DNA of 64,000 nucleotides, taken from Methylomarinum vadi (lineage in GTDB: Bacteria > Pseudomonadota > Gammaproteobacteria > Methylococcales > Methylomonadaceae). The DNA lies in contig NZ_JPON01000001.1 in assembly GCF_000733935.1 (NCBI RefSeq), positions 3,482,623 to 3,546,622 on the forward strand, written 5' to 3'. The translations under genes and the position numbers were made by a program. Under the pieces are notes generated by a model. The model did no database searches. It saw nothing but the letters and a program-made list of their open reading frames with translations, and was not told the DNA's origin. Of this stretch, positions 1-59,951 are shown piece by piece (position 1 is the stretch's first letter; each line of letters opens with the position of its first letter).

Positions 1-518
1 CCGAGTTTTGGAATGGGCAAATTCCTTGGGTTAGTCCTAAAGATATGAAAGTTGATGTAATTGAGGACGCTCAGGACCATATCTCGGAAGTAGCAATCGA
101 AAACTCTGCTACTCGACTTATCCCCATCAGCTCACTTCTGATAGTGGTGCGTGGAATGATCCTCGCTCATTCATTTCCGACAGCGATCAGTAGCGTTCCT
201 CTAGCTATTAATCAAGACATGAAAGCTGTTACGCCATTTCGGTCGGATTTGATCAATATGTTACTGCTGTTAACAAAAGGAATGAAATCAGAGATTCTTC
301 GACTTGTACAGCGTTCAACACATGGCACATGTAAGTTATTGACTGAAGAGCTTCTTGCATTACCTATTCCAATTCCTCCACTTGACGAACAACACCGCAT
401 CGTCGCCAAAGTCGATGAACTGATGGCGCTGTGCGATCAGTTACAAACCCAAATCAACAAAGGTCAAACCACTCAAATCCATTTGGCCGACGCCATTGTC
501 GAACAAGCGATAGCCTAG
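1..518 (+). CDS. hsdS: Type I restriction-modification specificity subunit HsdS, C-terminal part (gene starts upstream of the window)
   Basis: The frame is open from nt 3. The motif FWNGQIPWVSPKDM is typical of HsdS target-recognition domain borders. The C-terminal conserved helix LPIPIPPLDEQHRIVAKVDELMALCDQLQ is the HsdS distal conserved region. Confidence 0.75.
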   Translation, partial: EFWNGQIPWVSPKDMKVDVIEDAQDHISEVAIENSATRLIPISSLLIVVRGMILAHSFPTAISSVPLAINQDMKAVTPFRSDLINMLLLLTKGMKSEILRLVQRSTHGTCKLLTEELLALPIPIPPLDEQHRIVAKVDELMALCDQLQTQINKGQTTQIHLADAIVEQAIA

Positions 519-543: not shown

Positions 544-690
544 CACTGCCATTAAGTTAAGTCGTCATGTCGGCAGGGATTGCCGACATCCAGACTACAA
601 GGATGTATTCAGTGCCAGCCATCCCTGGTTTCTGGATTCCGGCAATCCATGCCGGAATGACGGTCAGGTTAGTGTGGACGGTTTTTTTCA
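544..690. repeat. Degenerate second copy of the MITE-like element (same 17-bp left end cactgccattaagttaa, related internal sequence, right end not recognisable)
   Basis: Shares its left terminus and internal cggcagggattgccg / cggcaatcc-tgccg palindromic blocks with the element at 1456..1599. Confidence 0.4.
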
Positions 691-707
691 TAGAATAGAA
701 TAATGAT

Positions 708-1472
708 ATGTTCGGTTTATCTGACATAAATGCTGTCTTATCCATTTGGGATCGAATCAAAAAAGGGACGGCTGATGATCAAGCGATACAGGCTTCAGAC
801 ACGGTCGCCAGCCGCTTTGTCCGTCTGTTTGAAAAACACGACATCCACCGCAACCAGATTCCGCGCTTTTTCGGTCACGGCTTGACCCTGGATTCCGTTT
901 CCAGCAATGAAAAACTAATCGCGCAATTAAGCCCTGAAATTTTGCACGCGGCGGCGGAACTATTCGCCATTCGCCTGGAATGGTTGGAAGGGGCCGACGA
1001 TCAGCTTTATGACACGCAAAATTTTTACAAGTATCCTGAAGGTTATGGCGAGTTCTTAAAAGAATTGAAATCCAAGGGCGATCACCGGCTAATGATCAAG
1101 CTGGTATTAACCGATTACGGTTATCGTGATGAAAATGCGCTGTTAGTGATCGAGGAAGAAATCGCTAACCTGGGTGATGAGACCATCGTTCGCTATTACC
1201 TCTGCAGTGGTTGGTCGCATAAATACTATAAATGCCGTGCAGACCTCGCCGCTTGCATTGCTATGACCTTAAATCAACAGGGTGGTATTCGAAGTACCTG
1301 GAAACAAGGCCCGATTAACACCTTTTGCGAAGGCAAGGGCTTTATCAGCGATCTTTATTCTTTGCCCTATGCCTGCCGGCGGGACTGGTTACTGCGTAAA
1401 CGCTATGCCAAAGCCGGCTGGCATCCGGAGCACTGGATCTATGATCCCGAAGCCTCACTGCCATTAAGTTAA
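708..1472 (+). CDS. Hypothetical protein, C-terminally truncated by MITE insertion; the stop codon lies inside the MITE TIR and the displaced original 3' end continues at 1600..1744
   Basis: ORF ends YDPEA-SLPLS*. Removing the MITE restores YDPEA-YLDGVDEGDWGKKCALQRWLHYFDKGFLETGCHYRKNAYDDFRQ* in frame. Confidence 0.5.
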   Translation: MFGLSDINAVLSIWDRIKKGTADDQAIQASDTVASRFVRLFEKHDIHRNQIPRFFGHGLTLDSVSSNEKLIAQLSPEILHAAAELFAIRLEWLEGADDQLYDTQNFYKYPEGYGEFLKELKSKGDHRLMIKLVLTDYGYRDENALLVIEEEIANLGDETIVRYYLCSGWSHKYYKCRADLAACIAMTLNQQGGIRSTWKQGPINTFCEGKGFISDLYSLPYACRRDWLLRKRYAKAGWHPEHWIYDPEASLPLS

Positions 1473-1599
1473 CGAAAAGTTTGTCATTCCGGCAGGGAAT
1501 GCCGGAATCCAGTTGCCAAGGATGGCAAGCCGAATCACGTCCCTGTATCCTGGATATCGGCAATCCCTGCCGATATGACGGCTTAACTTAATGGCAGTG
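1456..1599. mobile_element. MITE-like non-autonomous element, 144 bp, with perfect 17-bp terminal inverted repeats (cactgccattaagttaa / ttaacttaatggcagtg) and flanking 11-bp direct duplication tcccgaagcct
   Basis: TIRs and TSD read directly; internal long inverted repeat (ccggcagggaatgccgg ... cggcaatccctgccg) predicts a hairpin. Confidence 0.6.
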
Positions 1600-1814: not shown

Positions 1815-4022
1815 ATGAATGCTTTAACAGAAGGAACTGGCTCAAAAGTCTGTTGGTTCGTTGGCGCCAGTTATGGCGGTACTAAAGATCAAACCGATCG
1901 CTTTGTTGATAAGGGTGTTTGGGAAAATGGTTATGGCAACAAGTACCTCGATCTGGTGCAAAGCATCAAGCCGGGTGAACGAATCGCTATAAAGTCAACT
2001 TATACCCGTAAGCATAATTTGCCGTTTGATAACCGTGGCCATGTGGCGTCTGTGATGGCCATTAAGGCGATAGGTATTGTCACCAAGAATCATGGTGATG
2101 GCAGAGTTGTTGAGGTTGACTGGACAAAATTCGAGGAACCACGGGAATGGTATTTTTATACCTATAGAAGCACGGTTTGGCGAGTATTGCCTGATGATTG
2201 GTGCGCCGCTGGTTTGATCAGCTTTACCTTTGATGGGCAGCCGCAAGATATCGACCGGTTTAGGAATGATCCGTATTGGTACGAGCGCTTTGGCGATGCG
2301 CCTGATGAGAAAAAGCGCTTTCTGTGGACCAAGTTTTATATGGAAGTGGCCGATAAGTTATTGGATTATCGTGACCGAAGATCAGAATTGGTAGCGGCGT
2401 TAAGGAAAATTGCCGGGCGGGTAGAAGGATTAACAAATTTGCATGATCGTTATAAAAATGGAAATGTCGCTTCTTTACAAGATATTTGTCCATTCACTAC
2501 GATGGGGATTTTCAATAGAGGGATCACCGAAGCCAACCGTAAGGTCATTGCCAGCGAGTTGGCGAAATTTCTAAAAGTGGAAGAGCCTGTGCCAGAGAGT
2601 TTTGAAGGTATTCCTGTCCTCAATAATCTGAAATCCTGGTTCTTTGGTTTTGAAAAGAACCGGGAGCCGGATGACATTGATTCGCTATGGAGAATTTTTG
2701 CAGAGGCTTTAAGGTTTAGCGATTCAGAACACAGCGGTGATGGGTCAGCATTTATCGACGCTTACGATAATGTGACTGATAGATATGGCATTGGCTCAAA
2801 TATTACCATGGGGCTTTATTGGATTCGGCCATGGAGCTTCCCAACCCTCGATAGTCGCTCAAAAAACTATATTGAAAAAAACCTGGGCATAAAAATCGAT
2901 TTGAATGGACCAAAGGGAAATTGTAATGCCTTGGACTATTTATCGTTATTAAATAAATTGGAAGTCCATTTTCAAGAGCCCACTTATCCCGTCCATTCGT
3001 TCCCTGAATTGTCTTTGGCTGCTTGGTCATATCAGGACGCTGAAAAACTCGATGAAAAGCAGGAGGATCTCCCGGATCAAATCAATGAGTCTGACAATAT
3101 AGCCGATTATGAGCCTGTTCCCGTTGTCGTTGAGCCTTACGGTATTGATGACATTTTATCCGATGGTTGTTTCCTTGAAAGGTTACAACTTGAAACAATT
3201 CTGGAGCGGTTAAGAACGAAAAAGAACTTGGTTCTCCAAGGACCGCCTGGTACCGGGAAAACCTGGCTGGCAAAGCGCTTGGCCTATGCTTTGATGACTC
3301 AGAAAAATGTTGGAAACAGACTTCGTGTCGTGCAGTTTCATCCCAATTTATGCTATGAGGATTTTGTTCGGGGTTGGCGCCCCTCGGGCGAAGGTCGTTT
3401 GTCTTTGATCGACGGACCGTTTATGGAAATGGTTCAAGCTGCAGCAAAAGCCCCCAAAGTTAAACACGTTATCGTGATCGAGGAAATCAACCGCGGCAAT
3501 CCTGCGCAAATATTCGGTGAGATGCTTACTTTGTTGGAAGCGGATAAACGTACACCAACCGAAGGCCTGGAATTGTGCTATCGCAGGGAGGATGATGAGC
3601 GCGTTTTTGTACCCGATAATTTATATGTTATCGGCACGATGAATATTGCCGACCGCTCGCTTGCCTTGGTCGATTTAGCGTTAAGACGACGTTTTGCATT
3701 CGTGGATTTGCAGCCAACCCTCGGTCAGCCTTGGCGCGAATGGGTGCATCAGAAATTTGCGATAGCCCTTGAAGTCTTGGACGAAATTGAAAGCCGTATG
3801 GCGGCTTTGAACGAAGACATCGCCAGCGATGCCAGTTTGGGTAAGCAATTTCAAGTGGGGCACAGTTATGTAACGCCGCCAACCGGGGCGAGAATCAATG
3901 ATGCGCGGGAATGGTTTAAACAGATTGTACAGACTGAAATCGGACCTTTACTGGAGGAATATTGGTTCGATGCGAACGATAAGGCGGATAACGCCAAGCA
4001 GCGTTTGTTGGACGGTTTTTAG
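1815..4022 (+). CDS. mcrB: McrB-family AAA+ GTPase subunit of a McrBC modification-dependent restriction system. The N-terminal ~150 aa is a PUA-like (EVE/ASCH-type) putative modified-base reader, followed by ~300 aa of unassigned sequence.
   Basis: GTPase motifs LVLQGPPGTGKTW, VVQFHPNLCYEDFVRGWRP, VIEEINRGNPAQIFGEMLTLLE, LYVIGTMNIADRSLALVDLALRRRFAF; N-terminus resembles the EVE beta-barrel (WFVGASYGG...IKPGERIAIKS...VASVMAIKAIGIVTK). Confidence 0.85.
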   Translation: MNALTEGTGSKVCWFVGASYGGTKDQTDRFVDKGVWENGYGNKYLDLVQSIKPGERIAIKSTYTRKHNLPFDNRGHVASVMAIKAIGIVTKNHGDGRVVEVDWTKFEEPREWYFYTYRSTVWRVLPDDWCAAGLISFTFDGQPQDIDRFRNDPYWYERFGDAPDEKKRFLWTKFYMEVADKLLDYRDRRSELVAALRKIAGRVEGLTNLHDRYKNGNVASLQDICPFTTMGIFNRGITEANRKVIASELAKFLKVEEPVPESFEGIPVLNNLKSWFFGFEKNREPDDIDSLWRIFAEALRFSDSEHSGDGSAFIDAYDNVTDRYGIGSNITMGLYWIRPWSFPTLDSRSKNYIEKNLGIKIDLNGPKGNCNALDYLSLLNKLEVHFQEPTYPVHSFPELSLAAWSYQDAEKLDEKQEDLPDQINESDNIADYEPVPVVVEPYGIDDILSDGCFLERLQLETILERLRTKKNLVLQGPPGTGKTWLAKRLAYALMTQKNVGNRLRVVQFHPNLCYEDFVRGWRPSGEGRLSLIDGPFMEMVQAAAKAPKVKHVIVIEEINRGNPAQIFGEMLTLLEADKRTPTEGLELCYRREDDERVFVPDNLYVIGTMNIADRSLALVDLALRRRFAFVDLQPTLGQPWREWVHQKFAIALEVLDEIESRMAALNEDIASDASLGKQFQVGHSYVTPPTGARINDAREWFKQIVQTEIGPLLEEYWFDANDKADNAKQRLLDGF

Positions 4023-4024
4023 CA

Positions 4025-5143
4025 GTGGTTGCCGTGCCTTCACAAGCTATTCAGGGTGATGAATATTCTGGCGGCTATATCGGAAGAATTCCGGTCAGAA
4101 ATCTGTGGTTGCTGATGTTTTATGCCTCTGACTTGTTTAAGCATCAAGGCGCCGGAAAAATTGAGTTGAAGGATGCGCCCGATGATATTCCTGATTTAGT
4201 CGCGGAGTTATTGATTCGGATCGTTGAAAGACGATTGATGCGCAACTTGAGCTTTGGCTATCGAAATAGGCAAGAAGATCTAAGTCGAGTAAGGGGGCGT
4301 ATTGACCATTTCAGGACAGAACGGCAACAGTTGCTTTTACGGGGAAGGGTGGCCTGTCAATTTGAAGAGTTAACCGTTAATACCCCACGAAACCGATATG
4401 TCCGTGCTGCATTAAACGTTCTGTCGGGGTTGGTGACGCGTCAAGTTCTTGCGCATAAGTGTAGGGCTTTAGCAGGCAATTTATTCCAGATGGGCGTAAC
4501 TGGTGAGAAGCCGAGTCGTGTGCAGGTTTCCACCGATCGATTTGGACGGCATGACAGCGATGACCAGCAAATGGTCGCTGCGGCTCATTTGGCGTTTGAA
4601 TTGGCTTTGCCGACTGAACAGAGTGGAACAAGCCATTTGACGTTACCCGATAAAGAAATTGCTTGGGTAAGGCGTTTGTTTGAAAAGGCTGTCGCCGGGT
4701 TTTATGACGTGGTGTTATCCGAAGCAGGCTGGCGAGTGGATGCGGGTAAGAAGATCAACTGGCAGATCGAGGCAAAGACCGACGGCATAGACCGAATCTT
4801 GCCGTCGATGGTGACCGATATCCAGCTTGAACACAAAGGCACGTCTCAACGGATTGTTATCGATACCAAGTTCAATGCGATAGTTACTTCCGGTTGGTAC
4901 AGGGCGGAAATATTGCGTAGCGGCTATCTTTACCAGGTCTATACCTATCTGAGATCCCAAGAGCGGAGCTGCGATCCAATGTCATTAAATGCATCAGGAA
5001 TTTTGTTACACCCTGCAATTGATAAAATGGCTGATGAATCAGTCGTCATTCAAGGGCATAAGATCCGTTTCGCGACGGTTGATTTAAGTCAGTCGACTCA
5101 CGAGATTCGGGAGCGTTTGTTACAAATTATCGATAGTAAATGA
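4025..5143 (+). CDS. mcrC: McrC nuclease subunit (PD-(D/E)xK) of McrBC, GTG start, translationally coupled to mcrB
   Basis: Lies immediately downstream of mcrB and matches McrC in size; IVIDTKFN matches the McrC D-x-K catalytic block. Confidence 0.8.
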   Translation: MVAVPSQAIQGDEYSGGYIGRIPVRNLWLLMFYASDLFKHQGAGKIELKDAPDDIPDLVAELLIRIVERRLMRNLSFGYRNRQEDLSRVRGRIDHFRTERQQLLLRGRVACQFEELTVNTPRNRYVRAALNVLSGLVTRQVLAHKCRALAGNLFQMGVTGEKPSRVQVSTDRFGRHDSDDQQMVAAAHLAFELALPTEQSGTSHLTLPDKEIAWVRRLFEKAVAGFYDVVLSEAGWRVDAGKKINWQIEAKTDGIDRILPSMVTDIQLEHKGTSQRIVIDTKFNAIVTSGWYRAEILRSGYLYQVYTYLRSQERSCDPMSLNASGILLHPAIDKMADESVVIQGHKIRFATVDLSQSTHEIRERLLQIIDSK

Positions 5144-5316: not shown

Positions 5317-6040
5317 ATGTTGGAAATAGTTGAAATCATAAAACCAGCCGATCAAGGACGAACAACTCCTTTTTTATGTAAGGCTTCAGATGATCAACTT
5401 TACTTCGTTAAAGGCTATGCTGCGGCGGTTTCCGGGTTGATTAAGGAATGGATGGGAGCGCATTTGGCACAGGGGTTGGTTTGCCGGTGCCTGGTTTTCA
5501 AATAGCTTATCTTGATCACAGTTTGGTCAACGCTTTTGGGGGAAAGGCGATCACTGAGCTCAAAGGGGGCTATGTTTTTGCCTCAAAGAAGGTCGCTTCG
5601 GTCACCGAGCTGAAATTCGAAACCATTAAAATGCTTTCTGATGATTTGAAAAAGATGTGTTGTTGTTCGATCTATGGACGGAAAATGAAGACCGGACGCT
5701 TTCCGAAAAAGGTGGAAATCCGAATTTGCTATGGAAAAGCGACACATCGGAGTTGTACGTTATCGATCATAATTTGATTTTTGACAGTCATTTCAATCAA
5801 TCCAATTTTTGGGACACGCATGTTTTTCTTCATGCTTTCGAGCAACAAGACGATATTGTAGAAAAATTGGCATTTGAAAATCGGATGAAAAAAGCACTTG
5901 CCTGTTGGCGAGCAGCGTGGGATAAAATGCCCGAAGAATGGGTCGAACTCAATGACGATTTGCAAGCGTTCGATCCTGATTTTCACCTGCAACGTCTAAA
6001 AAATGAAGCTCACGGAGATATTTGGTTAAAGCTGCCATGA
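5317..6040 (+). pseudogene. HipA-like (HipA_C fold) Ser/Thr kinase gene split over three reading frames (5317..5505, 5448..5777, 5657..6040), so two frameshifts
   Basis: LFDLWTENEDRTLSE...LYVIDHNLIFD aligns with the HipA_C catalytic block lfnlliGNtDaHlkN...LaPaYDl. Three consecutive overlapping ORFs run in three frames. Confidence 0.5.
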
Positions 6041-6846
6041 AAAAACAAGTGTGTAAGTACAGCATTATTCGCTTTCAGCCTTATGCTGAAACAGAAGAGT
6101 TCGCCAATATTGGCATCGTGCTGTATGCCACGGCTTCTAAGCGTCTTGAATTTAGACTGCTGGATAGCAAGCAACACGCAAGGATTACGCATTTTTTCGA
6201 TCCTTTGTGTAAAGATGTTTTTGTCCAAACTAATAAAGTCATACGTTGTGAAATTGAGCGGATTAAAAAATTTATGGACAACGCAACAGGCGAAGATATT
6301 GATTTGTATGCCGAGTTAGTTCGTTGTCGTGAAGATATTATTCGTTTTAGCGATAACCGAGTTTTATTCTGCAGTGACCCGGTAAAAACTGTTGATGAAT
6401 TATTTGAGCATTACGTGCATCGTAGCTTTCTTCATGAACCCAGTTATGAGGAAAAAATGAAAAAACAGATGCGCGATTTGCTTGATCGATATGATTTGGG
6501 AGCTAAATACAAAGAAGGCGCTGTCGGAGAACGTGATAAATATGAAGTTCGATTTCCTTTTGTCCGTCAAAATAAAAAGTTAAAGATCATTAAACCTATT
6601 CATTTCACACATGACAAACCCAGCCAGTTAATTGATCATGGTCTTACCTGGCTTGCAAAAGTTCAGCAGCTTGAAAGGCTTCGTTTTGTCAGGCCGGACG
6701 AAATTTTATTTGCTTATGATGGGCCAGAAAAAAGTGAGGGCAATTTGAGTGATGCTTTTTATGAAATCAAAGAGCAAATCGAGCGTGAAGGCATAACCAT
6801 GGCCGATATGGACAGTCAAAATGAGATTATAAGTTTTGCCAGATAA
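6022..6846 (+). CDS. DUF3037-family protein (true start probably Met at ~6037)
   Basis: N-terminal CKYSIIRFQPYAETEEFANIGIVLY matches the DUF3037 signature (YsvvRfvP..EfvNvGvvl). Confidence 0.55.
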   Translation: MVKAAMKKQVCKYSIIRFQPYAETEEFANIGIVLYATASKRLEFRLLDSKQHARITHFFDPLCKDVFVQTNKVIRCEIERIKKFMDNATGEDIDLYAELVRCREDIIRFSDNRVLFCSDPVKTVDELFEHYVHRSFLHEPSYEEKMKKQMRDLLDRYDLGAKYKEGAVGERDKYEVRFPFVRQNKKLKIIKPIHFTHDKPSQLIDHGLTWLAKVQQLERLRFVRPDEILFAYDGPEKSEGNLSDAFYEIKEQIEREGITMADMDSQNEIISFAR

Positions 6847-6910: not shown

Positions 6911-7140
6911 TTAGTTATCAGCAAGTGCGTAGCCCAGTCCCTTATAACCAGTCAGGCGTTTGTCTCTCATCCGGTTTAGCATGGGCACATCATCCGCATA
7001 GTCATAAATGAGGACTTCGGTTTTGGCATGATGTAGCCGGTGTAGCCTTCCGACGTACTGGGCTAATGTGCCTTTCCAGGATACCGGTAAGACTAATAAC
7101 AAAGTATCCAGGCGAGCGTCATCAAATCCTTCGCCCAAGT
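6911..7140 (-). pseudogene. 3' fragment (C-terminal ~75 aa, helicase motif VI region) of the IS-disrupted AEP-primase/SF2-helicase gene
   Basis: GEGFDDARLDTLLLVLPVSWKGTLAQYVGRLHRLHH continues the helicase ORF, which ends ...ATGRYL at the other IS junction. Joining across the IS restores GRYLGEGFD. Confidence 0.7.
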
Positions 7141-8885
7141 GAGGCTGTCGTAAAAGCCCCCCAACCAGCTACATACGGTAAAATAACCCTATCCAAACCT
7201 ATTAGAAATAGATCAATGGCAGCCGAAGTAAACATTAGACCCGTCAGGACATTGTATAGCGCCAAGCAATATTCGCTATTCGATGAATGCGAGGTTGAAC
7301 CGTTACCTGAGTTGATCGCTCAATCGATCTCGAGCGAACCGATGGCCCATTTTGAAGCGCCCGACCCGCGCGGCTTATCGATCAACGGTAAACCGCTCGG
7401 CGAACATCTGGAGCACGCCGGCTTAACCATCCCGTTGAAATTGCGCCCCTTCCTGCAATCGCTATCCTTCGCCGAGTTCGAAGCCCGTTATCGGCCCGGC
7501 GGGCGTCCGCCGTATGCGCCACGTGCGATGGTGGGGATTATTCTCTACGGCCTGTTACAAGGCATCAGCAGCCTGCGCGACTTGGAGCGTTTAGCTCGAG
7601 CCGATGTGGGGTGTTGGTGGCTAAGTGGCGGTATCATGCCGGATCACTCAGTCATTGGCCGTTTCGTCCATCAGCATGCCGAATCATTGACGACCGAATT
7701 TTTCGATCAACTGGCGCGTCGTACTTTGAAAGTCACAGGCTCAGGCACGACGACGTTGGCGGGCGACGGTACCGTGATCGAAGCCATGTCCTCCCGGTTT
7801 CAATTGATGAAGGAAGAAGCGCTCAAGCAAGCCTTGGCGCAAGCGCAGGAAGCCGCGCAAGCCAAACCCGACGATGCAGCGGCAAGCAAGCGGTTGAACC
7901 TATTGGAACAAGCCCAAGCCGAGCTAAAGTCTCGCCAGCAAAAACAAGCCGCCAAAGGCAAAGATCCGGCCAAGACCCAAGTACAAAGCAACGAGCCGGA
8001 GGCGGTATTACAGCCGCAAAAGAACTCCAAAGACTTTCGCGGCAGTTATAAACCGTCGGTATTGGCGAACGACAATCGAGTGATCGTGGCTTGCGACGTT
8101 CATCCTTCCAGCGAAACCGAGGTGGTGCCGGGCTTACTGGATCGCGCCCAAGCCATGGGAGGCGTCGAAACAGCTCTGTTCGATGCTGGCTATTTCAGCA
8201 ATGGCGTCTTGGATACTGCTGAGCAACACAACATCGAATTGCTTTGTCCGGAAGGCCAAAGTGAAGGAGACGATTGGAACAAACAATCCAACAAACAAAT
8301 CCCCAAAAGCCGCTTTATTTATCAGGCCGACGACGACACCTATCGCTGTCCGGGGCAACAACGCTTGACTCGCCGTCACACCTGCAAAGGCGGTAAAAGT
8401 GGCCGCGCTTATACCGTCTACGCCTGCGATGCCTGTTCAGACTGCCCGCTGAAATCCCAATGCACGCGTAGCGAGAGTGGTCGCACCCTCAAACGCTATG
8501 ACAGCGATACACAAAAAGAAGCCCTGCGCCTGAAAATGGACCAGCCCGAACCTCGGCAACGCTATCGACAGCGGCAGGCCATGGTGGAGCCCGTCTTCAG
8601 TCAGCTACGCGGTCGCCAAGGTTTGAATCGCTTTCGCCGTAAAGGTTTGGCGGGTGTCAAAGTAGAGTTCGCCTTGCACGCCATGGCTTACAATCTGAGC
8701 CGCGCCTTAGTGGCAGCTCTTTTTCGTGCTTTATATCATTGGCTTAGCCGGTTTATGAGCTCGTTTGACCGAATGGTCGACATTTGGCTGAGTTACACTA
8801 CTGACTTGCCAACTTCGCCGACCGTGGAAAATACGGCCGGTTTCCAGTGGTAAATCAAAGAAATTGGGGTTTTACGACGCCCTCC
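7141..8885 (+). mobile_element. IS1182-family (IS5 superfamily) insertion sequence, copy 1, 1745 bp, imperfect ~20-bp TIRs (gaggctgtcgtaaaagcccc / ggggttttacgacgccctcc), 4-bp TSD AAGT
   Basis: Ends were defined by comparison with copy 2 at 40166..41910. The TSD aagt is read on both flanks. Confidence 0.8.
7216..8853 (+). CDS. IS1182-family DDE transposase (545 aa); the ORF-track start 7066 is an artefactual extension into the flank
   Basis: Has an InsH-like N-terminal domain (APRAMVGIILYGLLQGISSLRDLERLARADVGCWWLSGG) and a C-terminal zinc-ribbon (CPGQQ...CKGG...CDACSDCPLKSQC) before the last catalytic block. Copy 2 starts at the equivalent MAAE. Confidence 0.85.
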   Translation: MAAEVNIRPVRTLYSAKQYSLFDECEVEPLPELIAQSISSEPMAHFEAPDPRGLSINGKPLGEHLEHAGLTIPLKLRPFLQSLSFAEFEARYRPGGRPPYAPRAMVGIILYGLLQGISSLRDLERLARADVGCWWLSGGIMPDHSVIGRFVHQHAESLTTEFFDQLARRTLKVTGSGTTTLAGDGTVIEAMSSRFQLMKEEALKQALAQAQEAAQAKPDDAAASKRLNLLEQAQAELKSRQQKQAAKGKDPAKTQVQSNEPEAVLQPQKNSKDFRGSYKPSVLANDNRVIVACDVHPSSETEVVPGLLDRAQAMGGVETALFDAGYFSNGVLDTAEQHNIELLCPEGQSEGDDWNKQSNKQIPKSRFIYQADDDTYRCPGQQRLTRRHTCKGGKSGRAYTVYACDACSDCPLKSQCTRSESGRTLKRYDSDTQKEALRLKMDQPEPRQRYRQRQAMVEPVFSQLRGRQGLNRFRRKGLAGVKVEFALHAMAYNLSRALVAALFRALYHWLSRFMSSFDRMVDIWLSYTTDLPTSPTVENTAGFQW

Positions 8886-11080
8886 AAGTAGCGACCGGTT
8901 GCAATTAAAACCCGTTCTTCTTGTTCGGGGATATTATCGAGTGTTGACTGGATGCTTTTTCGTTGTTTGGTTGTTTCGCCACCTTGCAGCACGACAACAT
9001 GTTTGACAAATGTTCGGATTCTTTCGGCCAATACAGAAACATGCTGTTTACGCTCGGTCAGTACTAGCGGTGATCGTCCTTCCTGCAACAATTTTTCTAC
9101 ATCATCAATGATCAGCTGATTGCGTTTTTCATCCTGGATCAACGCTTGGTATATTTGATGAATCGCTAAATGTGAATCAACATCTTCTGTTGAAGGTAAT
9201 ATAAACTCGGTATCCCTGAATACCAACCTGTGCTCAAATGGCCTGGCTATCGCTTGTTTTTTCGCATCGACTTTATAGCGTACTGGGCCGCATTGCATGG
9301 TAACGATCGGATGATGCCCATCTTTACGAACCAATGTTGCCGACAAGCCGAGAACGTATTTCGCTTTACAGGCTTTAGCTACATTTTCAAAATTCACTGC
9401 GGACAAATGATGACACTCATCAAAAATGACCTGACCATAATTTGCGACGACGTCATCGATTTGTTGTTGCCGGAACAAGCTTTGCATAACCGCTACATCG
9501 ATAATACCCGTCGGTTTGCGCTTGCCCCCGCCAATCCGTCCTACCTTTTTTTGGTCTATCGTTAAAAACTGTGCAATTCGTTCAAGCCATTGATCAAGTA
9601 ATTGTCGCCGGTGAACAATGATTAAGGTATTCACCTGTCTTCGTGCTAAAAGATATAAAGCGATGACCGTTTTGCCGAACGCCGTTGTTGCCGATAATGT
9701 ACCGGTATCGTGCTGCAATAAACAATCCACTACGGTTTGTTGTTCAGGCAACAACTCTCCCTGAAAATGTAGATCTTCGATTTTGTTACCGGCAAAACGT
9801 TCATCCTGTAGATCCACCTGCACGTTCAATTCCTTACATAACGACAGCAGCTCTTCAAGGCAACCTCTTGGTATGGCAATATGCTGCGAATAGTTTTCTG
9901 CACAGGCAATGATTCTGGGTTTATCAAACGTCGGCAATCTCATCGCCTGGGCTTTATAAAACTCCGGGTTCTGAAATGCCGCCAAACGAATAATTTTATT
10001 TTGCAGGCTTGGCGGTAAGTTTTGTTTTTCGATGAATAATTGGCTAGCCTGAGTGACATGCAATGATGCCGGTAACTTATCTGACTGAATTGTAATCTGG
10101 GTTTTACGTGAAGGGGGTAACGTCCAAGGTTCGCCATCATCTTCTGCAACCGGCATACGAACGCCAAGCAAGTCACCATTGCTCTCCGCTTGTTCAATCA
10201 GTTGTCTCGTCTCAATGGGAGATAAACGTTTCAGTGTGGATAAAAACGCCCATTGATCTTCATAAGGCTTGAAATGTTCATCGACAAATACGCTATTCTT
10301 TTGATCACGCGCTTTTTTCTGTAATGGCAAAGCAATCAGGTTCCCAAACCCTCCTTTTGGCAGAGTATCCTGATTTGGAAAAAAGCGATCATACGAATCG
10401 AACCCGATTTCCGGGTATTCCGCCATCGCTTGTGTTAATAACAACGCGGCTAATTTCCGAGCTTCAACCGCAAAAATCGCTTGGGTAAAAAACACCCAAA
10501 TATGTGCGCCCTGTCCGGAGCGGGAAATTTCAATGGCATGCGGAACTTGTTTTTGTTGGCAGATGCGTGAGAAGGCCTGAACATCGGATTGCCATTGTGC
10601 TTTGTCAAAATCCACCGCGACAAACCAACAACGCTCATCCGGCAACATGGGATATACTCCCATCACAAAATCAGTATTTGAGTGATAGTCAGTTCCTGAA
10701 AGATGGCTCTGAATGACCAGGTCCGTTACCGGCAGAAATGCCTTGTGTTGACACGCGCTGCATTTGACTCTGGGTTTGTCACAGATGCCTTTTTTCCATT
10801 CATTACCACAAACAGGCGAATAACCTGACTTTCCGGTTTTGCTGTTTTCCCAGCGTCGTGGATAGACATCTTCCCGGCCTTTAAACAGCTCGCGAAATAA
10901 ACGAATTTTCTCGGCGTTAGAAGATAATTGGGTGACTGGGGCTGAAGAAGTAGGTGATTTTAATGATTTGAGATCGTTGAGTTGTCGCTGTAACGATGCT
11001 CTTTTGGTATCTAAAGCATGAATCTCTTTTTCTAAAGCGGCAATTTTTTGGTTAAGGTCATTATTCATACTTTCTTTCAT
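8886..11080 (-). pseudogene. 5' part of a gene for an N-terminal coiled-coil + archaeo-eukaryotic primase (AEP) domain + SF2 (DEAD/DEAH-like) helicase fusion. It is interrupted by the IS1182 copy and resembles proteins annotated as TOTE conflict-system primase/helicase or as island primase-helicases.
   Basis: AEP motifs WFVAVDFD (DxD) and SRSGQGAHIWVFF (SGxGxH); helicase motifs TTAFGKT (Walker A), DECHHLSA (motif II), LGLSATL (III); and motif VI QYVGRLHR on the other side of the IS. Confidence 0.7.
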
Positions 11081-11164
11081 CCGAAAGAATATTATTCGAC
11101 AATAACCTACCAGGTCGGATTACGGCTAATCTATCCAATGAGCTGTGAACAAAATTGATTGCAT

Positions 11165-11584
11165 TCATTCTGAAAGCGGGTTTATCAATTGTACTCCGGT
11201 ATTTTCAAAGTCTTTGGTATTTCGCGTAACAACGGTTAAATCATAGATTATCCCGGTAGCAGCAATCAATTTATCTAAAGAGTGCTCGTGGTTAGGGACG
11301 CGTAATTTTCCCCAAAGTAAAGCAATTTCGCTATCAATGGACAGGATGTTGTCTTGATATTGATCGAGAATAGTATTGAGCCAGTTTTCCAACCGTTTAC
11401 CTTGAGCTATGTCGCCACGGTGGAAAATCAGATCGACGCCTCTGCGCAATTCCCCTATCGTAATGGACGAGATATAAACAGGTATATTCTCCTGAATGAC
11501 TTGATCGAAAAATTCTCGCACACCGGAATCGGCTTTATCACCTTTCCTAAGTTCGCTGATGATGTTGGTGTCAATCAAATACAT
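11165..11584 (-). CDS. vapC: VapC/FitB-like PIN-domain toxin (start at MYLIDTNII; ORF-track start 11635 is an upstream extension)
   Basis: PIN N-terminal signature YLIDTNIISE; 14-nt overlap with the upstream antitoxin gene. Confidence 0.8.
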   Translation of the reverse strand: MYLIDTNIISELRKGDKADSGVREFFDQVIQENIPVYISSITIGELRRGVDLIFHRGDIAQGKRLENWLNTILDQYQDNILSIDSEIALLWGKLRVPNHEHSLDKLIAATGIIYDLTVVTRNTKDFENTGVQLINPLSE

Positions 11585-11807
11585 TGGATTCGCTGGTGTC
11601 GTCATCGACACGCTGAAAATCCGTATCCATGCCAACGGCAGGAATGCTGGCTAACGCTTCAGCAAAGCTTTTACGTTGCGGTTTCATCAGAACTTCAGCC
11701 AAAATGGCTCGGTGTTCGGCTTCGGTCGAGCGGTGGTGTTTAACGGCTCGTTCCTTTAGCGCAGTAACGATCGATTCATCCAGGTTTCTAACAACTAGGC
11801 TTGGCAT
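11571..11807 (-). CDS. vapB: VapB/FitA-like antitoxin (Arc/MetJ or StbC-type)
   Basis: MPSLVVRNLDESIVTALKERAVKHHRSTEAEHRAIL is the classic plasmid-stability antitoxin N-terminus. Lies upstream of the PIN gene and overlaps it. Confidence 0.7.
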   Translation of the reverse strand: MPSLVVRNLDESIVTALKERAVKHHRSTEAEHRAILAEVLMKPQRKSFAEALASIPAVGMDTDFQRVDDDTSESNVFD

Positions 11808-12391: not shown

Positions 12392-12913
12392 CTAATCCGG
12401 TTCAGCTAAAATCGACCGAATGGTTTCGAGAGTCATCATCAGCGTCATCGGCTGGATCGTAGATTCGACAAACCCGCGCGAGAGATAAAATTGTTTGGCG
12501 GGTTCTGAAAGCGCGTGAACTAAAATCGCAAACACCCCAGTATCTTTCGAGACGTTTACAGCACGCAGCAGGGCATCACGCAGCAGTTCCTGGCCGATGC
12601 CTTGATTGTGATAGCGTTGATCGACAGCAAGTCTGCCCAACAAGATAACGGGTAGCGGGTCAGGCATATTTCGCCGCATCGACTTGGGTGATGCTTCGTG
12701 ACTGATTGCGCCTGCCGACAGACAATAATAACCGATCACCTTGTTGTCATTGCAAACGACAAAACAGCGAGAAGCGCCTGCCGCTTGGTTTTTCAACGCG
12801 CGTTTTTGCAGCCAGTTGTTTAACGATATCTCACCGCTATCAAAATCCGTTATGTCATGATCTTCGGTGATAGGCGCTGGTGCGGAAAGAAGGAGATCTG
12901 CCATCAATCCCAA
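12392..12913 (-). CDS. GNAT-family acetyltransferase toxin (TacT/KacT-like)
   Basis: GNAT motif (RLAVDQRYHNQGIGQELLRDAL); overlaps the upstream DUF1778 gene by 10 nt. Confidence 0.75.
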   Translation of the reverse strand: MGLMADLLLSAPAPITEDHDITDFDSGEISLNNWLQKRALKNQAAGASRCFVVCNDNKVIGYYCLSAGAISHEASPKSMRRNMPDPLPVILLGRLAVDQRYHNQGIGQELLRDALLRAVNVSKDTGVFAILVHALSEPAKQFYLSRGFVESTIQPMTLMMTLETIRSILAEPD

Positions 12914-13182
12914 GGTGCTTTTTTCTTCAGTAAACGACGTAATTTATCCGTGGGCGGCAGTGGTTTATCCAACAATGCTTGAAATTGCGCGAACGTGCCC
13001 GCATCGACAGCAAAAAAAGCTTGGTCGAGCAAAACATCTTCAGCTTCTCGGCACGCGGCTTCAAGCATGAATTCTGAGCGACTACGGCCTAAACGGCTGG
13101 CGGCTTGATCAATCAAGTCGCGTTGTTTAGCTTTAGCCCGGATATTGATCGAGACAGCTTCATTGGAATGACTATGTTGCAT
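12904..13182 (-). CDS. DUF1778 (RHH) antitoxin partner of the GNAT toxin (TacA/KacA-like)
   Basis: SINIRAKAKQRDLIDQAASRLGRSRSEFMLEAA is the DUF1778 ribbon-helix-helix signature. Confidence 0.75.
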   Translation of the reverse strand: MQHSHSNEAVSINIRAKAKQRDLIDQAASRLGRSRSEFMLEAACREAEDVLLDQAFFAVDAGTFAQFQALLDKPLPPTDKLRRLLKKKAPWD

Positions 13183-14434: not shown

Positions 14435-14956
14435 TTACTCATTGTCGAGGTAATCTTTTTTACCGAGTTCGACTCCTTGATGGCGGAGTATGGCGTAGGC
14501 CGTCGTGACATGAAAATAGAAATGGGGAATGATGTTAGCCAACAAATAATCTCGCCCCGTATAAACGACTTCTTTGTCCGCTAACTTGAATGTAATCAGT
14601 CGATCATGGCTATGGTCGATCAATTCGCTATCGATTCCTCGCAAAAAATCAGTGGTCTTGCGTATTTTCTTCTTGAAGGCGTCGAATGTGATTTCATCGA
14701 ATTCGTATTGGGGTGAGTTAATCCCAGCCAAGCGCGCAGCGCACGTTTTCGCCATGTCGGCGGCGATTTGAATTTGTTGGCTGAGCGGATACATATCCGG
14801 CGCCAAACGGGCGTCGAGAAGAACGGATTCATCGATACCTTCGGCTTCGGCATAAGATCTGGCCTTGTCGATGATCGACGATAAATTACCAAGCATACGA
14901 ATAAAATGGGGAATAGAGGCTTGGTACATGGAAATAGACATAGTTCGTTCGACCAT
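14435..14956 (-). CDS. DUF1993-like (DinB/YfiT-fold) protein
   Basis: The N-terminus MSISMYQASIPHFIRMLGNLSSIIDKA resembles DUF1993 family starts, recalled from memory and not searched. Confidence 0.4.
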   Translation of the reverse strand: MVERTMSISMYQASIPHFIRMLGNLSSIIDKARSYAEAEGIDESVLLDARLAPDMYPLSQQIQIAADMAKTCAARLAGINSPQYEFDEITFDAFKKKIRKTTDFLRGIDSELIDHSHDRLITFKLADKEVVYTGRDYLLANIIPHFYFHVTTAYAILRHQGVELGKKDYLDNE

Positions 14957-15363
14957 TAACGGTTAGCGTTGTAGCGACAATATGGATTGAACGTCCATTT
15001 GAAGGATTTCGGCTCGACTAAATAAAGCCGAAAGTCGCTATAGACAAACTTCGATTTTGAGGCTGTTCGAACAGCAAATCCTGCGATTGTTTTGATTAGC
15101 CATGAACTCATGTCCGGTCGAATTTTTAGTCGACATTCATTCGGCCTCATCGAAAAAGAAAAGCCTCGAGGACCATCGTCGCCGGCCCAGTCTTTTCGTA
15201 TCCCAAGCAGTTTATGCAGATCAATCTGCACCAGATTGCCCAGGACCGGCATGTCCTTGGGCCCGGTAGCTGAGATAAGCTTCGAGGCGGTTGGACTTCG
15301 GACGTAAGGCAGCGTTATCGTTTTTGGGAGACCGTTAAGCCATACCGATATCGGCACAAACAC
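14956..15363 (-). CDS. Hypothetical protein (start uncertain)
   Basis: ORF only; abuts the downstream gene. Confidence 0.25.
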   Translation of the reverse strand: MFVPISVWLNGLPKTITLPYVRSPTASKLISATGPKDMPVLGNLVQIDLHKLLGIRKDWAGDDGPRGFSFSMRPNECRLKIRPDMSSWLIKTIAGFAVRTASKSKFVYSDFRLYLVEPKSFKWTFNPYCRYNANR

Positions 15364-34455: not shown

Positions 34456-35106
34456 ATGAACGATAGTCTTGTGACAATATTGGGAAGTTCGTATTTTGAA
34501 CCAATTAGTGCATTGCTTGAAAAGCTGGAGAAACACGAGAGCAATATCTCTAACCAAGTTCAATCTGGCTATTACGAAAAAGGGTTTGCTGCATCGATCT
34601 GTATTCTGAGTGTGGTCTGCCTGGAGTCATACGTAATGAGAGTTAGGTATATTAATTCTGCCAACCAAGATCATATTGATAGAACGCCTGTTGTTAGTTA
34701 CTTAAAGTCACTATATCCAGATTTTCCGTTTGAAAACGAATTACTGGAATTACATATATTGAGAGACCTCCTGGCCCACAATCACCTATGGGAAATATCA
34801 TATTCATTTAACGAAGATGATGAAATGGAAATTAGTGAGGTAGAAAAAAGAAGTTCTGGTGATAAAAAATATCGGCAACGTGTAGATACGGAAAATCACG
34901 TAACAAAAACTCTAGGCCTGAACGTGAACCCAATTAAGGTAGGGGCTTCAGACGTTAAGTTGGTCCTTCAGACGATGTGGAAAATTCTACTTTTTCTTGA
35001 GAGCAAGAATAGAAATCAATGCTACGTATCTCATCTGCGCGCGGTATATAAGGGCACACTAAGGCAGTTTGGTGAAATCATTGGTATGCCAGAAACATGC
35101 ACATAA
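34456..35106 (+). CDS. Hypothetical protein (216 aa), AT-rich, partner of the preceding gene; its TAA stop coincides with the first bases of the IS91-family element
   Basis: ORF with an SD; no recognisable motif. Confidence 0.4.
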   Translation: MNDSLVTILGSSYFEPISALLEKLEKHESNISNQVQSGYYEKGFAASICILSVVCLESYVMRVRYINSANQDHIDRTPVVSYLKSLYPDFPFENELLELHILRDLLAHNHLWEISYSFNEDDEMEISEVEKRSSGDKKYRQRVDTENHVTKTLGLNVNPIKVGASDVKLVLQTMWKILLFLESKNRNQCYVSHLRAVYKGTLRQFGEIIGMPETCT

Positions 35107-35415
35107 CGAATAAGGTTAGATTGTAATCGCGGAGCGAGCCACAATCTGAACCGTTTGTTGGACAAGCCCGGTATTCGGAGGGAGCGTTATATAAGAAAAT
35201 AGCTTTTCGAAGGATTGGGGGATGTGTTGGCCCATTTCAAGCGTTGACGTCGATAAACGGGCTGAAATGGGCGTGATGCTGATCATCACACCCGGAATTT
35301 CGGATTTTAGCGGCATTTTGCCCTGAATTCAGACCGAACGAAAGCCTCGGTGCTAAAATGCCCGATGATCGGTTTGGGTCAGTGAGAAATGCCGCTTACA
35401 TAACCGGTTTTGCCT

Positions 35416-59595: not shown

Positions 59596-59951
59596 CGTTA
59601 TCCGGCGGATGAACGTGTATCATCGGGATAATTGAGTCCTAACGAATAAGGTTAGATTGTAATCGCGGAGCGAGCCACAATCTGAACCGTTTGTTGGACA
59701 AGCCCGGTATTCGGAGGGAGCGTTATATAAGAAAATAGCTTTTCGAAGGATTGGGGGATGTGTTGGCCCATTTCAAGCGTTGACGTCGATAAACGGGCTG
59801 AAATGGGCGTGATGCTGATCATCACACCCGGAATTTCGGATTTTAGCGGCATTTTGCCCTGAATTCAGACCGAACGAAAGCCTCGGTGCTAAAATGCCCG
59901 ATGATCGGTTTGGGTCAGTGAGAAATGCCGCTTACATAACCGGTTTTGCCT

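Follow-up and report, generated by a model that had tools for sequence, protein, structure and literature searches.

A Methylomarinum vadi primase-helicase gene split by an IS1182-family element, a member of a probable solo mobile conflict gene family

TOTE conflict systems were reportedly predicted by Aravind, Iyer and Burroughs in 2022. PMC12458937 defines TOTE as TPR, OB, TBP, Effector, and our comparison with these systems is based on that text together with Pfam and RefSeq names. Pairs of PrimPol and helicase are known replication modules on mobile elements, according to PMC11724360. In the Thermus element ICETh2, a PrimPol mutant showed a 100–1000-fold increase in foreign DNA uptake, as given in PMC7693054.

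Here, we analyzed a primase-helicase gene of Methylomarinum vadi (6911..11080, minus strand) that is split in two by a 1744-bp IS1182-family element. Positions refer to the window, the whole 64,000-nucleotide stretch of DNA under analysis. Taken as a whole, the locus is probably best explained as an IS-split PrimPol-helicase gene belonging to a solo, mobile conflict or defence family.

Reconstruction of the split gene

The region 6911..11080 is a single gene coding for one 806-aa chain, and it is interrupted as follows:

6911..7135, minus strand: 3' part of the gene (codons 733–806 and stop; 74 aa), from ORF mapping and alignment
7136..7140: left copy of the target duplication, CAAGT, from excision; present as a single copy in the intact allele
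7141..8884, plus strand: IS1182-family insertion sequence, 1744 bp, with ~19-bp imperfect terminal inverted repeats, from excision, profile and a second copy
7216..8853, plus strand: IS transposase, 545 aa, from NF033551 and Pfam DUF772, DDE_Tnp_1 and DDE_Tnp_1_6
8885..8889: right copy of the target duplication, CAAGT, from excision; overlaps the Y731 and L732 codons
8885..11080, minus strand: 5' part of the gene (codons 1–732), from ORF mapping and excision

The annotated N-terminal ORF (8855..11080, minus strand; 741 aa) contains 732 native and nine IS-derived codons, its tail EGVVKPQFL being read-through into the IS. In silico removal of 1749 bp gave in-frame ...ATGRYLGEGFDD... and an 806-aa protein with no internal stops; excisions one base longer or shorter led to early stops. 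The reconstruction is supported because this deletion alone restores the frame. It is independently proven by a natural, uninterrupted 803-aa allele in the Logan assembly of SRR29270395 (96% protein and 95.9% DNA identity to the rebuilt gene), since the empty site of this allele, ...TCCTTCGCCCAAGT/AGCGACCGG..., has one CAAGT. The rebuilt protein matches ~800-aa homologues along its full length and aligns without gaps to 34 homologues, with all invariant residues kept, ATGRYLGEGFDD across the joint included. The insertion point falls within helicase motif V (ATGRYL/GEGFD), and the C-terminal part carries the second half of this motif (GEGFD) and motif VI, QYVGRLHR (7037..7060).

These results agree with the initial annotation in that the two parts rejoin in frame across the IS, with motif VI on its far side. 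Two of the checks it had proposed, excision followed by translation and a search for an uninterrupted allele in relatives, returned an ORF free of additional stops and the SRR29270395 allele. Its placement of the split beyond motifs I–III and before motif VI stands, and can be narrowed to the interior of motif V; its length estimate of ~815 aa has to be replaced by 806 aa.

The transposase scored 285.8 bits against the NCBIfam IS1182 model NF033551, for which the equivalog cut-off is 270 bits, so the family assignment made at the outset is upheld. The mechanically called transposase ORF begins at 7066 in the flanking gene and therefore includes 50 spurious codons. Both IS ends, with the imperfect terminal inverted repeats GAGGCTGTCGTAAAAGCCCC and GAGGGCGTCGTAAAACCCC, were defined by comparison with a second, inverted copy elsewhere in the window (97.2% identity; 40167..41910; ORF of 545 aa), which is flanked by CAGAG, likewise 5 bp. 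If the ends are the symmetric GAGG...CCTC, the target duplication would most simply be the 5-bp CAAGT; lengths from 3 to 6 bp would also fit because CCA is common to both junctions. The 4-bp AAGT duplication originally claimed, combined with a 1745-bp IS, is arithmetically equal but less simple. The element resembles other IS1182-family members in its DDE transposase above the cut-off, single ORF, short imperfect repeats and short target duplication, and nothing about it is unusual for the family; there are two copies per 64 kb.

The rebuilt gene has no lesion other than the insertion, and its comparison with the intact allele gave dN/dS = 0.134 and dS = 0.139. Given this low ratio and the absence of further lesions, the insertion appears recent relative to divergence from the sister allele. 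With 2.8% divergence between them, the two IS copies are not products of one very recent transposition burst and yield no clock. The inactivation, put forward as datable, is so only loosely: it is recent relative to dS = 0.14 but is not dated by the IS pair.

The split is ordinary pseudogenisation within an already catalogued family. RefSeq holds the 741-aa product as WP_235185938.1, [quoted passage not shown]. This product retains the complete PrimPol domain and lobe 1 of the helicase, but the end of motif V and the entire motif VI are missing, so that it is expected to be incapable of ATP-driven translocation.

Domain architecture and genomic neighbourhood

From N- to C-terminus, the rebuilt protein comprises a probable coiled coil, an AEP/PrimPol domain that includes a Cys cluster, and a helicase of the XPB/Rad25-like SF2 type. 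The regions delineated are:

10961..11080, minus strand: N-terminal helix, residues 1–40, probably a coiled coil, from AF2 (helix 2–40)
10208..10912, minus strand: AEP/PrimPol domain, residues 57–291, from PF22548, PADLOC and Foldseek
9791..10066, minus strand: small alpha/beta domain, residues about 339–430, from AF2 secondary structure and pLDDT
9329..9757, minus strand: helicase lobe 1, residues 442–584, from ResIII, DEAD and PDB sequence matches

The N-terminal region has weak coiled-coil Pfam matches to DivIC and Spc24, and its helix is kept in the aligned homologues with variable sequence. The AEP domain covers the whole Pfam profile PF22548 "AEP-TOTE" (E=4.4e-102, 341 bits), matches the PADLOC PrimPol model, a CRISPR-associated profile, at 4e-94, and aligns in Foldseek with CAPP Prim-Pol 7nqe (TM 0.81, rmsd 3.0). 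It contains the cysteines C91, C100, C107 and C110, which probably bind zinc, the DxD motif (D157/D159) and SRSGQGAH (SRSGxGxH, residues 186–193). Helicase motif I, ATTAFGKT, lies at 9668..9691 and motif II, DECHH, at 9407..9421 (both minus strand). DxD, SRSGQGAH, GKT, DECHH and QYVGRLHR are all invariant in a 35-sequence alignment, which confirms the AEP and helicase motifs recognized in the initial annotation.

The AF2 model (pLDDT 77.7) has a low-confidence linker (305–327) ahead of the small alpha/beta domain. This domain may correspond to the XPB N-terminal domain; Foldseek alignments to XPB chains extend over ~430–520 columns, exceeding two RecA lobes. The helicase matched Pfam ResIII (5.8e-23), DEAD (8.8e-11) and Helicase_C. 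Sequence matches in the PDB were to XPBII, Rad25 and CAPP, and the best Foldseek matches of the model were XPB-Bax1, TFIIH XPB and CAPP.

The gene lies directly downstream of vapBC on the same strand, as first described, and McrBC, TacAT and a decayed HipA_2/DUF3037 pair (PDC-M66) are also found locally. The term "defence island" suits about 1–13.2 kb but not the rest of the window. A scan of the genes between 45 and 19536 revealed no TPR, CSD or TBP gene. When the ORFs lying up to 6 kb from the gene at 27 related loci were clustered all against all, no cluster was shared beyond close relatives, and TPR, CSD and TBP were absent from the 25 most frequent Pfam families of the 134 flanking ORFs. 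The commonest families were PIN, Fic and ABC_tran (4 each), followed by HipA_C, ParE and GNAT (2 each), and PADLOC reported SoFic, mad2/3, PDC-S04, TIR/Pycsar, DpdF and R-M matches among the same ORFs. A complete TOTE system was rejected, as no TPR-OB or TBP partner is nearby, here or at the 27 loci, and from these missing partners we read the gene as solo mobile cargo. The earlier view of a TOTE component thus holds at the domain level and fails for the operon.

Candidate functions of the gene family

A conflict or defence role appears to be the best-supported function of the family, because its members lack a conserved neighbour, are patchily distributed across phyla and are surrounded by toxin-antitoxin, restriction and mobile-element genes. 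We infer that the gene works as a unit of its own in conflict or defence and spreads horizontally, being neither a replicase nor a piece of a TOTE operon. More than 8000 close homologues occur. The family is found in Methylococcales, Planctomycetota, Acidobacteriota, Paenibacillus, Bifidobacterium, Treponema and CPR. Relatives with a C-terminal DUF559 or PLDc_2 (PLD) nuclease domain were found; such a domain is added in about half of the related sequence clusters, and of the first 71 representative clusters, 34 extend at the C-terminus by 120 aa or more. The Methylomarinum vadi copy has no nuclease domain. We hypothesize that the XPB-like motor would load on, open or track foreign or replicating DNA and that the PrimPol domain would prime or extend DNA on the strand exposed by the motor, which would corrupt or stall invader replication. 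The fused nuclease of long-form relatives would add cleavage, and the coiled coil would probably mediate oligomerisation. This scheme is drawn purely from domain chemistry. A literature search turned up no family member that had been tested experimentally, and PADLOC v2 has no dedicated model, the CRISPR-associated PrimPol profile being its sole strong match. Toxin-antitoxin neighbours mark variable regions and are no proof of defence.

Unlikely, although the foremost of the alternatives, is that the gene serves a mobile element as a module for replication or establishment, comparable to P4 alpha, pRN1 ORF904 and plasmid-borne primases. In that case, the AEP would prime and the helicase unwind integrative-element or incoming conjugative DNA, and the Methylomarinum vadi copy would be a relic of such an element. 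The gene is indeed carried by conjugative plasmids and integrative elements, at times directly beside integrases: it matched 121 of 72,556 plasmid records, mostly large plasmids (50 conjugative, 26 mobilizable), and has tyrosine recombinases as neighbours both on Dinoroseobacter pDSHI01 and in one IMG/VR element. IMG/VR "viral" contigs hold about 17 full-length copies. However, the two host plasmids examined bear replicon types of their own (IncFIB and rep_cluster_160), and 50,697 phage records yielded no full-length match, so the family does not behave as the plain plasmid replicase that had been named as a refuting outcome. The helicase is also an XPB-like SF2 motor, not the SF3/D5/DUF3987 or DnaB type of known replicases, PriCT is absent from the protein, and nuclease fusions are unexpected for a replicase. 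No integrase, relaxase, origin-like repeats or tRNA gene lies beside the split gene in the window, and the lack of a conserved neighbour at the 27 loci argues in the same direction.

The E. coli orthologue bears on both sides of this question. Of 5426 complete genomes, 876 carry it (684 with at least 80% of the length covered), with some copies broken by IS1 or cut at IS66, and is variable cargo of an int-alpA-yfjI island. Its position directly after alpA, yfjI (DUF3987) and a Gp2-like gene, the latter two putative replication genes, fits element replication or establishment equally well. The same backbone is nevertheless present in 1379 genomes, at least about 500 of which must therefore lack the gene, and its absence was seen directly in strain Seattle 1946. 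The orthologue on plasmid pCP127 has a DprA gene and a hypothetical gene as its immediate neighbours.

The conflict reading also has to be weighed against an accessory DNA-repair or damage-tolerance enzyme that mobile DNA would carry for a fitness benefit, a reading which we regard as similarly improbable. Here, PrimPol would re-prime or fill gaps and the XPB/RadD-like motor would remodel stalled forks or lesions. The closest solved helicases are the repair proteins XPB, Rad25, RadD and UvsW, but the NCBIfam matches to XPB and RadD are weak, with scores far under the equivalog cut-offs (67.8 versus 610 and 36.6 versus 720 bits). Published work describes translesion synthesis (TLS), end joining and increased post-damage survival for a pAgo-associated PrimPol (PMC11724360) and a contribution of E. 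coli PrimPol-RT to both the oxidative DNA-damage response and phage defence (PMC12439943); in the Thermus ICETh2 PrimPol mutant, by contrast, damage sensitivity was unchanged (PMC7693054). Unlike core repair genes, the family is patchy, strain-variable and repeatedly lost by IS insertion or frameshift, and it is found among restriction and toxin-antitoxin genes, not in repair operons.

That the gene is the orphaned effector of a TOTE system of several genes, with partners elsewhere or lost and unable to act alone, is very improbable: Pfam and RefSeq names link the AEP domain to TOTE, but partner genes are missing from the scanned part of the window and from the 25 most frequent families at the 27 loci, which share no neighbour cluster, and many genomes that lack such partners keep the gene whole under purifying selection.

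Comparison with known systems

As in TOTE systems, the AEP domain fits the TOTE-built model PF22548 over its entire length (E=4e-102, bearing out "TOTE-like" in the profile check of the rebuilt protein), is joined to an SF2 helicase in one protein and lies in a variable, conflict-gene-rich region. In contrast to TOTE, the TPR-OB (cold-shock domain) fusion and TBP genes are not adjacent, and the present gene would act as a one-gene module.

CRISPR-associated Prim-Pol (CAPP; PDB 7nqd, 7nqe, 7nqf, 7p9j) provides the closest solved AEP fold (TM 0.80–0.83, rmsd about 3 A, 23–24% identity), with the catalytic DxD and SxxGxGxH motifs conserved. Here, however, the fusion partner is an XPB-like helicase, and there is no link to Cas1/Cas2; no cas genes or CRISPR-like repeats were found nearby, and the CRISPR PrimPol equivalog score is 97.9 bits against a cut-off of 200.

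Residues about 340–806 have their best structure and sequence match in archaeal XPB-Bax1 and TFIIH XPB (6p4o, 6p4f, 5tnu and others), with motifs I, II and VI of equal kind. Long-form relatives pair the motor with a PLD or DUF559 nuclease, echoing XPB and Bax1. Identity to XPB is only 13–21%, with the equivalog score far under its cut-off; XPB has no N-terminal PrimPol, and Bax1 is missing here, as is a nuclease in the present copy.

According to PMC11724360 and PMC7693054, the pAgo-associated AgaPP and Thermus ICETh2 Ppol-Hel likewise combine AEP and helicase on mobile DNA, and the restriction of foreign DNA uptake by the ICETh2 PrimPol is compatible with the defence reading. These are two separate proteins, whereas the gene described here encodes one chain; the AgaPP partner is a 5'-3' PriCT-DUF3987 helicase, in contrast to the PriCT-less SF2 XPB-like motor.

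The AbpAB anti-phage genes (YfjK/YfjL) of K-12 CP4-57 occupy the slot of the E. coli orthologue in a related island, after alpA, yfjI and yfjJ, with abpB, abpA and rnlAB at the matching relative position. IntA, AlpA and YfjI share 34–52% identity between the two islands, with no detectable DNA similarity between the backbones. Both AbpAB and the present family include an SF2-type helicase, but AbpAB is a two-gene system, and the sequence relationship is confined to the Walker A region.

Reconstruction of the interrupted gene

The gene lies on the minus strand at 6911..11080 and is present in two pieces on either side of an insertion sequence (IS):

8855..11080, minus strand: ORF of 741 aa, ending ...IATGRYL followed by nine foreign residues
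7141..8884: element of 1744 bp separating the two pieces
7216..8853: IS transposase, 545 aa; the 595-aa mechanical ORF begins 75 bp outside the element
6911..7138, minus strand: ORF with a TTG start, reading GEGFDDARLD...QYVGRLHR...ADN

One end of the element is GAGGCTGTCGTAAAAGCCCC and the opposite end is its imperfect reverse complement GAGGGCGTCGTAAAACCCC, giving terminal inverted repeats of about 19 bp with 16 of 19 positions matching. CAAGT stands on either side. When the element and one CAAGT (1749 bp) are excised, 806 open codons result; excisions of 1747, 1748 or 1750 bp lead to early stops. The excision proposed in the initial annotation, 7141..8885 together with AAGT, amounts to the identical 1749 bp. 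A second, inverted copy at 40167..41910, 97.2% identical (48 of 1744 positions differ) and flanked by CAGAG, defines both element ends and again shows a 5-bp target duplication. The target-site duplication is most simply read as 5 bp; because CCA is common to the junctions, lengths of 3–6 bp are formally also compatible. The transposase scores 285.8 bits against the NCBIfam IS1182 model NF033551 (cut-off 270) and contains the Pfam domains DUF772, DDE_Tnp_1 and DDE_Tnp_1_6. The family model, the inverted repeats and the target duplication together assign the element to the IS1182 family. The second copy has an intact 545-aa transposase and lies between genes, close to the 3' end of an ABC-transporter ATPase gene (41957..43045). 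A type I restriction-modification locus broken by this copy at 40–47 kb was considered and rejected, as Pfam identifies an ABC transporter and a SpoIIE sensor there.

The insertion point falls inside helicase motif V, so the 741-aa RefSeq product retains the PrimPol domain and helicase lobe 1 but has lost the last part of motif V and motif VI entirely. The RefSeq annotation should be corrected: what it lists as a 741-aa "protein" is the first part of an 806-aa gene broken by the IS, with the remaining tail of 74 codons 1.75 kb away.

Two further lines of evidence independently confirm the repair. The rebuilt protein aligns end to end with 34 homologues (55–70% identity), without gaps at the joint, and in the 35-sequence alignment it keeps all invariant residues, including ATGRYLGEGFDD. 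Furthermore, the N-terminal fragment falls into a 90%-identity cluster that includes the M. vadi protein WP_235185938.1, named [quoted passage not shown] in RefSeq, and, from a Logan assembly of SRR29270395, an intact protein of 803 aa. This allele is 96% identical to the rebuilt gene in protein and 95.9% in DNA, has the same flanks, and reads through the uninterrupted site ...TCCTTCGCCCAAGT|AGCGACCGG... with a single CAAGT. A scan of GTDB species representatives returned no copy above 69% identity.

Between the rebuilt and intact alleles dN/dS is 0.134 and dS 0.139 (Nei-Gojobori), so purifying selection was in force while nearly all of the divergence built up, and the insertion is recent by comparison. 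The expectation that the inactivation could be dated is borne out to that extent but no finer, the IS copies being 2.8% apart. Dating by the two copies was rejected, since 48 differences are too many for one copy to have given rise directly to the other.

Domains, fold and family

Residues 57–291 of the rebuilt protein match the PF22548 (AEP-TOTE) profile with E=4.4e-102 and 341 bits against a 27-bit cut-off, covering profile positions 1–227 of 230. This full-length match and catalytic motifs I–III identify the domain as a member of PF22548. The AEP motifs are invariant in 35 sequences: D157 and D159, S186–H193, and D231 in motif III (SYDRFFPNQD). Invariance extends to GKT 469–471, DECHH 554–558 and Y759/G761–R765, and to C91, C107 and C110, which, with C100 (present in at least 90% of the sequences), form a cluster that probably binds zinc. 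The remaining Pfam matches are ResIII (442–584), DEAD and a weak Helicase_C (659–766). The rebuilt helicase carries GKT 469–471, DECHH 554–558, SAT 580–582, ATGRYLGEGFD 727–737 and QYVGRLHR 758–765. The two RecA lobes of the rebuilt protein between them contain motifs I, II, III, V and VI, which places the helicase in the SF2 XPB/Rad25-like class; without the repair, the genomic copy has a split motif V and a detached motif VI.

The only strong PADLOC match is the CRISPR-associated PrimPol profile (4e-94). Matches to the NCBIfam models for CRISPR PrimPol (NF040561; 97.9 vs 200 bits), XPB (NF045503; 67.8 vs 610 bits) and RadD are all sub-threshold, and sequence matches in the PDB are to archaeal XPBII/Rad25 and to the Prim-Pol domain of CAPP. 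According to the AlphaFold model, whose mean pLDDT is 77.7, a long helix at the N terminus (2–40) precedes the AEP fold, which is followed by a disordered linker (305–327), a small alpha/beta domain (about 339–430) and the two RecA lobes. Foldseek ranks XPB-Bax1 and TFIIH XPB at the top (E about 1e-19, 13–21% identity) and superimposes the CAPP Prim-Pol with TM 0.80–0.83 and an rmsd of about 3 A.

More than 8000 word-sharing homologues were retrieved at E<=1e-10. The family counts no fewer than 150 clusters at 50% identity whose match spans most or all of the protein, all 150 listed representatives having E <1e-195. Its members are scattered over Pseudomonadota, Planctomycetota, Acidobacteriota, Bacillota, Actinomycetota, Spirochaetota and CPR. 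Of the 71 cluster representatives listed first, 34 are extended at the C terminus by 120 aa or more; where Pfam detects a domain in the extension, it is PLDc_2 or DUF559 (a Vsr-like endonuclease). Among related loci with an extension, three have DUF559 (one of them Pfam-scanned) and three PLDc_2; nine long representatives comprise one with DUF559, five with PLDc_2 and three without a recognisable domain. The family consists of a short form, to which the M. vadi gene belongs, and a nuclease-fused long form. Many relatives, among them those at loci L016, L018, L022 and L028–L030 and proteins P0129, P0134, P0136, P0140, P0164 and P0183, are 925–1100 aa long, with a DUF559 or PLD-like domain at the end. 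Some PLD copies lack the catalytic His (e.g., SQKIAIID in L030), and a few relatives carry an N-terminal GNAT or FMN reductase domain that may reflect gene-calling fusions.

Full-length homologues were absent from all 50,697 isolated phage genomes. On plasmids there were 121 matches among 72,556 sequences, mostly on large plasmids, and the two plasmids examined have their own replicon types. Full-length copies were found on about 17 IMG/VR contigs, one of them beside two integrases typical of integrative elements.

Genomic neighbourhood and the TOTE operon

The initial annotation described the gene as TOTE-like and placed it downstream of vapBC in a defence island. A scan from 45 to 19536 gave the following neighbours:

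45..518: HsdS fragment
1815..5143: McrB and McrC
5317..6040: HipA_2 kinase gene (PF20613), in three frames
6022..6846: DUF3037 gene, intact
11165..11807: VapBC
12392..13182: TacT/TacA

Beyond TacAT lie metabolic and signalling genes (AOC-like, DUF1993, transporter, GGDEF, radical SAM). ORFs 708..1472 and 14956..15363 had no Pfam match. McrB is unusually long (735 aa), with an AAA_5 GTPase domain at 471–627 and an N-terminal region of about 450 aa without a Pfam match. The HipA_2 and DUF3037 pair matches the PADLOC candidate PDC-M66A/B. The three HipA_2 reading frames (5317–5505, 5448–5777 and 5657–6040) correspond to profile positions 1–51, 45–109 and 112–237 and thus imply two frameshifts; this is a second decayed gene, directly beside the IS-split one.

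TOTE stands for TPR, OB, TBP, Effector, and the components shared by these systems are a TPR-cold-shock-domain fusion gene and a TBP gene (PMC12458937). The effector part is present, in that the gene itself encodes AEP and helicase domains; no RNase H domain was found in its product. No TPR-OB (cold-shock domain) or TBP gene adjoins it in the 45 to 19536 scan. The TOTE-like label therefore holds at the level of the domain (PF22548 and the RefSeq name) but not of the operon. We examined 27 related loci drawn from genomes and metagenomes, with 134 flanking ORFs. TPR, CSD and TBP are absent from the 25 most frequent Pfam families of these ORFs, which are led by PIN, Fic and ABC_tran (4 each), with HipA_C, ParE and GNAT at 2 each; PADLOC matches among them include SoFic, mad2/3, PDC-S04, TIR/Pycsar, DpdF and restriction-modification enzymes. 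All-against-all clustering of ORFs within 6 kb revealed no neighbour that any of the 27 loci share, except between close relatives. The gene is a solo module, and members of its clade as a rule occur on their own, outside TOTE operons.

A conserved vapBC partner was also considered and rejected: the four closest intact relatives have an unrelated vapB-like/PIN pair, located downstream and not upstream, and their vapB-like gene does not cluster with that of the window. Between 6700 and 12100, promoter and terminator hits did not outnumber those in shuffled sequence. Neither an integrase gene nor a tRNA gene adjoins the gene in the window.

Other repeats were noted in the window. Two copies of another mobile element with an IS91-family Y2 transposase (365 aa), at about 35104..37417 and 59640..61953, lie in direct orientation 24.5 kb apart and share an identical 300-nt stretch and the same ORF-pair spacing, each also encoding a 246-aa tyrosine-recombinase-like protein. 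Between the HsdS fragment and McrB, 63-nt inverted repeats (544–606 and 1537–1599, 89% complementary) surround ORF 708..1472 (254 aa) and contain CACTGCCATTAAGTTAA plus a GGCAGGGAATGCCG-type hairpin; 544..1599 may represent a small cassette or an element of REP/MITE type.

The E. coli orthologue, possible function and known systems

An orthologue with 47% identity is present in 876 of 5426 complete E. coli genomes (16%), O157:H7 among them. Copies of at least 80% length number 684 of the 876, about 22% being truncated; in some, the gene is split by IS1 or breaks off at IS66. The orthologue of O157:H7, like that on plasmid pCP127, follows genes for an integrase, AlpA, YfjI (DUF3987) and an inovirus-Gp2-type protein. 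K-12 CP4-57 has a related backbone, whose IntA, AlpA and YfjI proteins are 34–52% identical to those of this island; in DNA, the E. coli islands and CP4-57 showed neither synteny nor similarity. In CP4-57 the same relative position holds abpB, abpA ("anti-bacteriophage protein") and rnlAB. AbpB (YfjK) itself was rejected as a homologue, the similarity being confined to the Walker A region. At >=80% coverage, 1379 genomes have the O157-type yfjI-Gp2 backbone, far exceeding the number with the helicase, and in strain Seattle 1946 the backbone is followed by other cargo. Since the backbone is often found without the helicase, the gene is variable cargo rather than part of the island core.

On pCP127 of strain EC93 (locus L042), a DprA gene and a 208-aa hypothetical gene on the opposite strand (10286..11802) adjoin the orthologue, with a contact-dependent inhibition (cdiA) locus beyond them; this pair may resemble the DprA-PPRT defence pair.

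From the domain chemistry and the genomic context, we lean, if only modestly, towards a self-contained conflict or defence protein. Its XPB-like motor would open or track invading DNA, on which the PrimPol domain would prime or extend; in the long forms, the nuclease would add cleavage. A bolder proposal, which we hold tentatively and as somewhat less than probable, is that the short form, with its coiled coil, PrimPol domain and XPB-like helicase, is a complete one-gene immune system that needs neither TPR-OB/TBP sensors nor a nuclease and might, for instance, unwind the DNA of an invader and start aberrant synthesis there; the repeated losses of the gene would then reflect a real fitness cost. 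A further loss is seen in the sister strain Methylomarinum sp. Ch1-1, whose orthologue (P0122; WP_305906721.1), annotated at 375 aa, has a frameshift near residue 320 (window position about 10100) and continues from about that residue in an alternative frame, the same as that of window ORF 9940..10197; this gene has thus been inactivated there independently. Repeated inactivation (IS1182 here, the Ch1-1 frameshift, IS1/IS66 and truncations in E. coli) is notable but no proof of cost. We found no report in the searchable literature of phage protection by family members or of experiments on them. Given the abundance in E. coli (16%, including O157:H7), the one-gene immune reading is directly testable.

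The protein could instead be a primase-helicase for replication or establishment of mobile elements, as its occurrence on plasmids and in islands, and the yfjI/Gp2 genes beside it, would suggest; against this stand an SF2 motor of XPB type, the missing PriCT domain, fusions to nucleases, a backbone that dispenses with the gene, and the lack of a constant integrase or origin linkage. A mobile enzyme of DNA repair or damage tolerance would account for the XPB/RadD similarity and has PrimPol precedents in published work (PMC11724360; PMC12439943), but fits poorly with the neighbourhood and the patchy, decay-prone distribution; the PrimPol of Thermus ICETh2 is reported to have lowered foreign-DNA uptake and not to have changed damage sensitivity (PMC7693054). 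That the gene is an orphaned TOTE effector is contradicted by the neighbour surveys.

It was already known that the family exists in Pfam, that the NCBI pipeline names it and that RefSeq holds the protein as a truncated product, and IS disruption of an accessory gene is routine. The present analysis adds an exact gene repair, confirmed by an empty site found in nature, the finding that the IS sits within motif V, the solo rather than TOTE-operon setting of the clade, its split into short and nuclease-fused forms, and a testable link to the anti-phage slot of E. coli islands. The rebuilt sequence and the natural intact allele are ready test constructs, and the orthologue, common in well-studied E. 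coli and located in a slot equivalent to an anti-phage one, is a cheap candidate for defence screens.

Compared with known systems, the protein is like XPB at the level of fold only, its sub-threshold score arguing against orthology. Its AEP fold is like that of CAPP, whose family cut-off it misses; no cas genes were seen near the gene and no short spaced repeats in 1–20 kb. Replicative primase-helicases (P4 alpha, pRN1 ORF904, PriCT) differ in that their SF3/D5-like, DUF3987 and PriCT domains are absent here, where a ResIII/DEAD SF2 helicase is found instead. The long forms, in which the motor is fused to one or another nuclease domain, recall helicase-nuclease defence proteins and the archaeal XPB-Bax1 pair.
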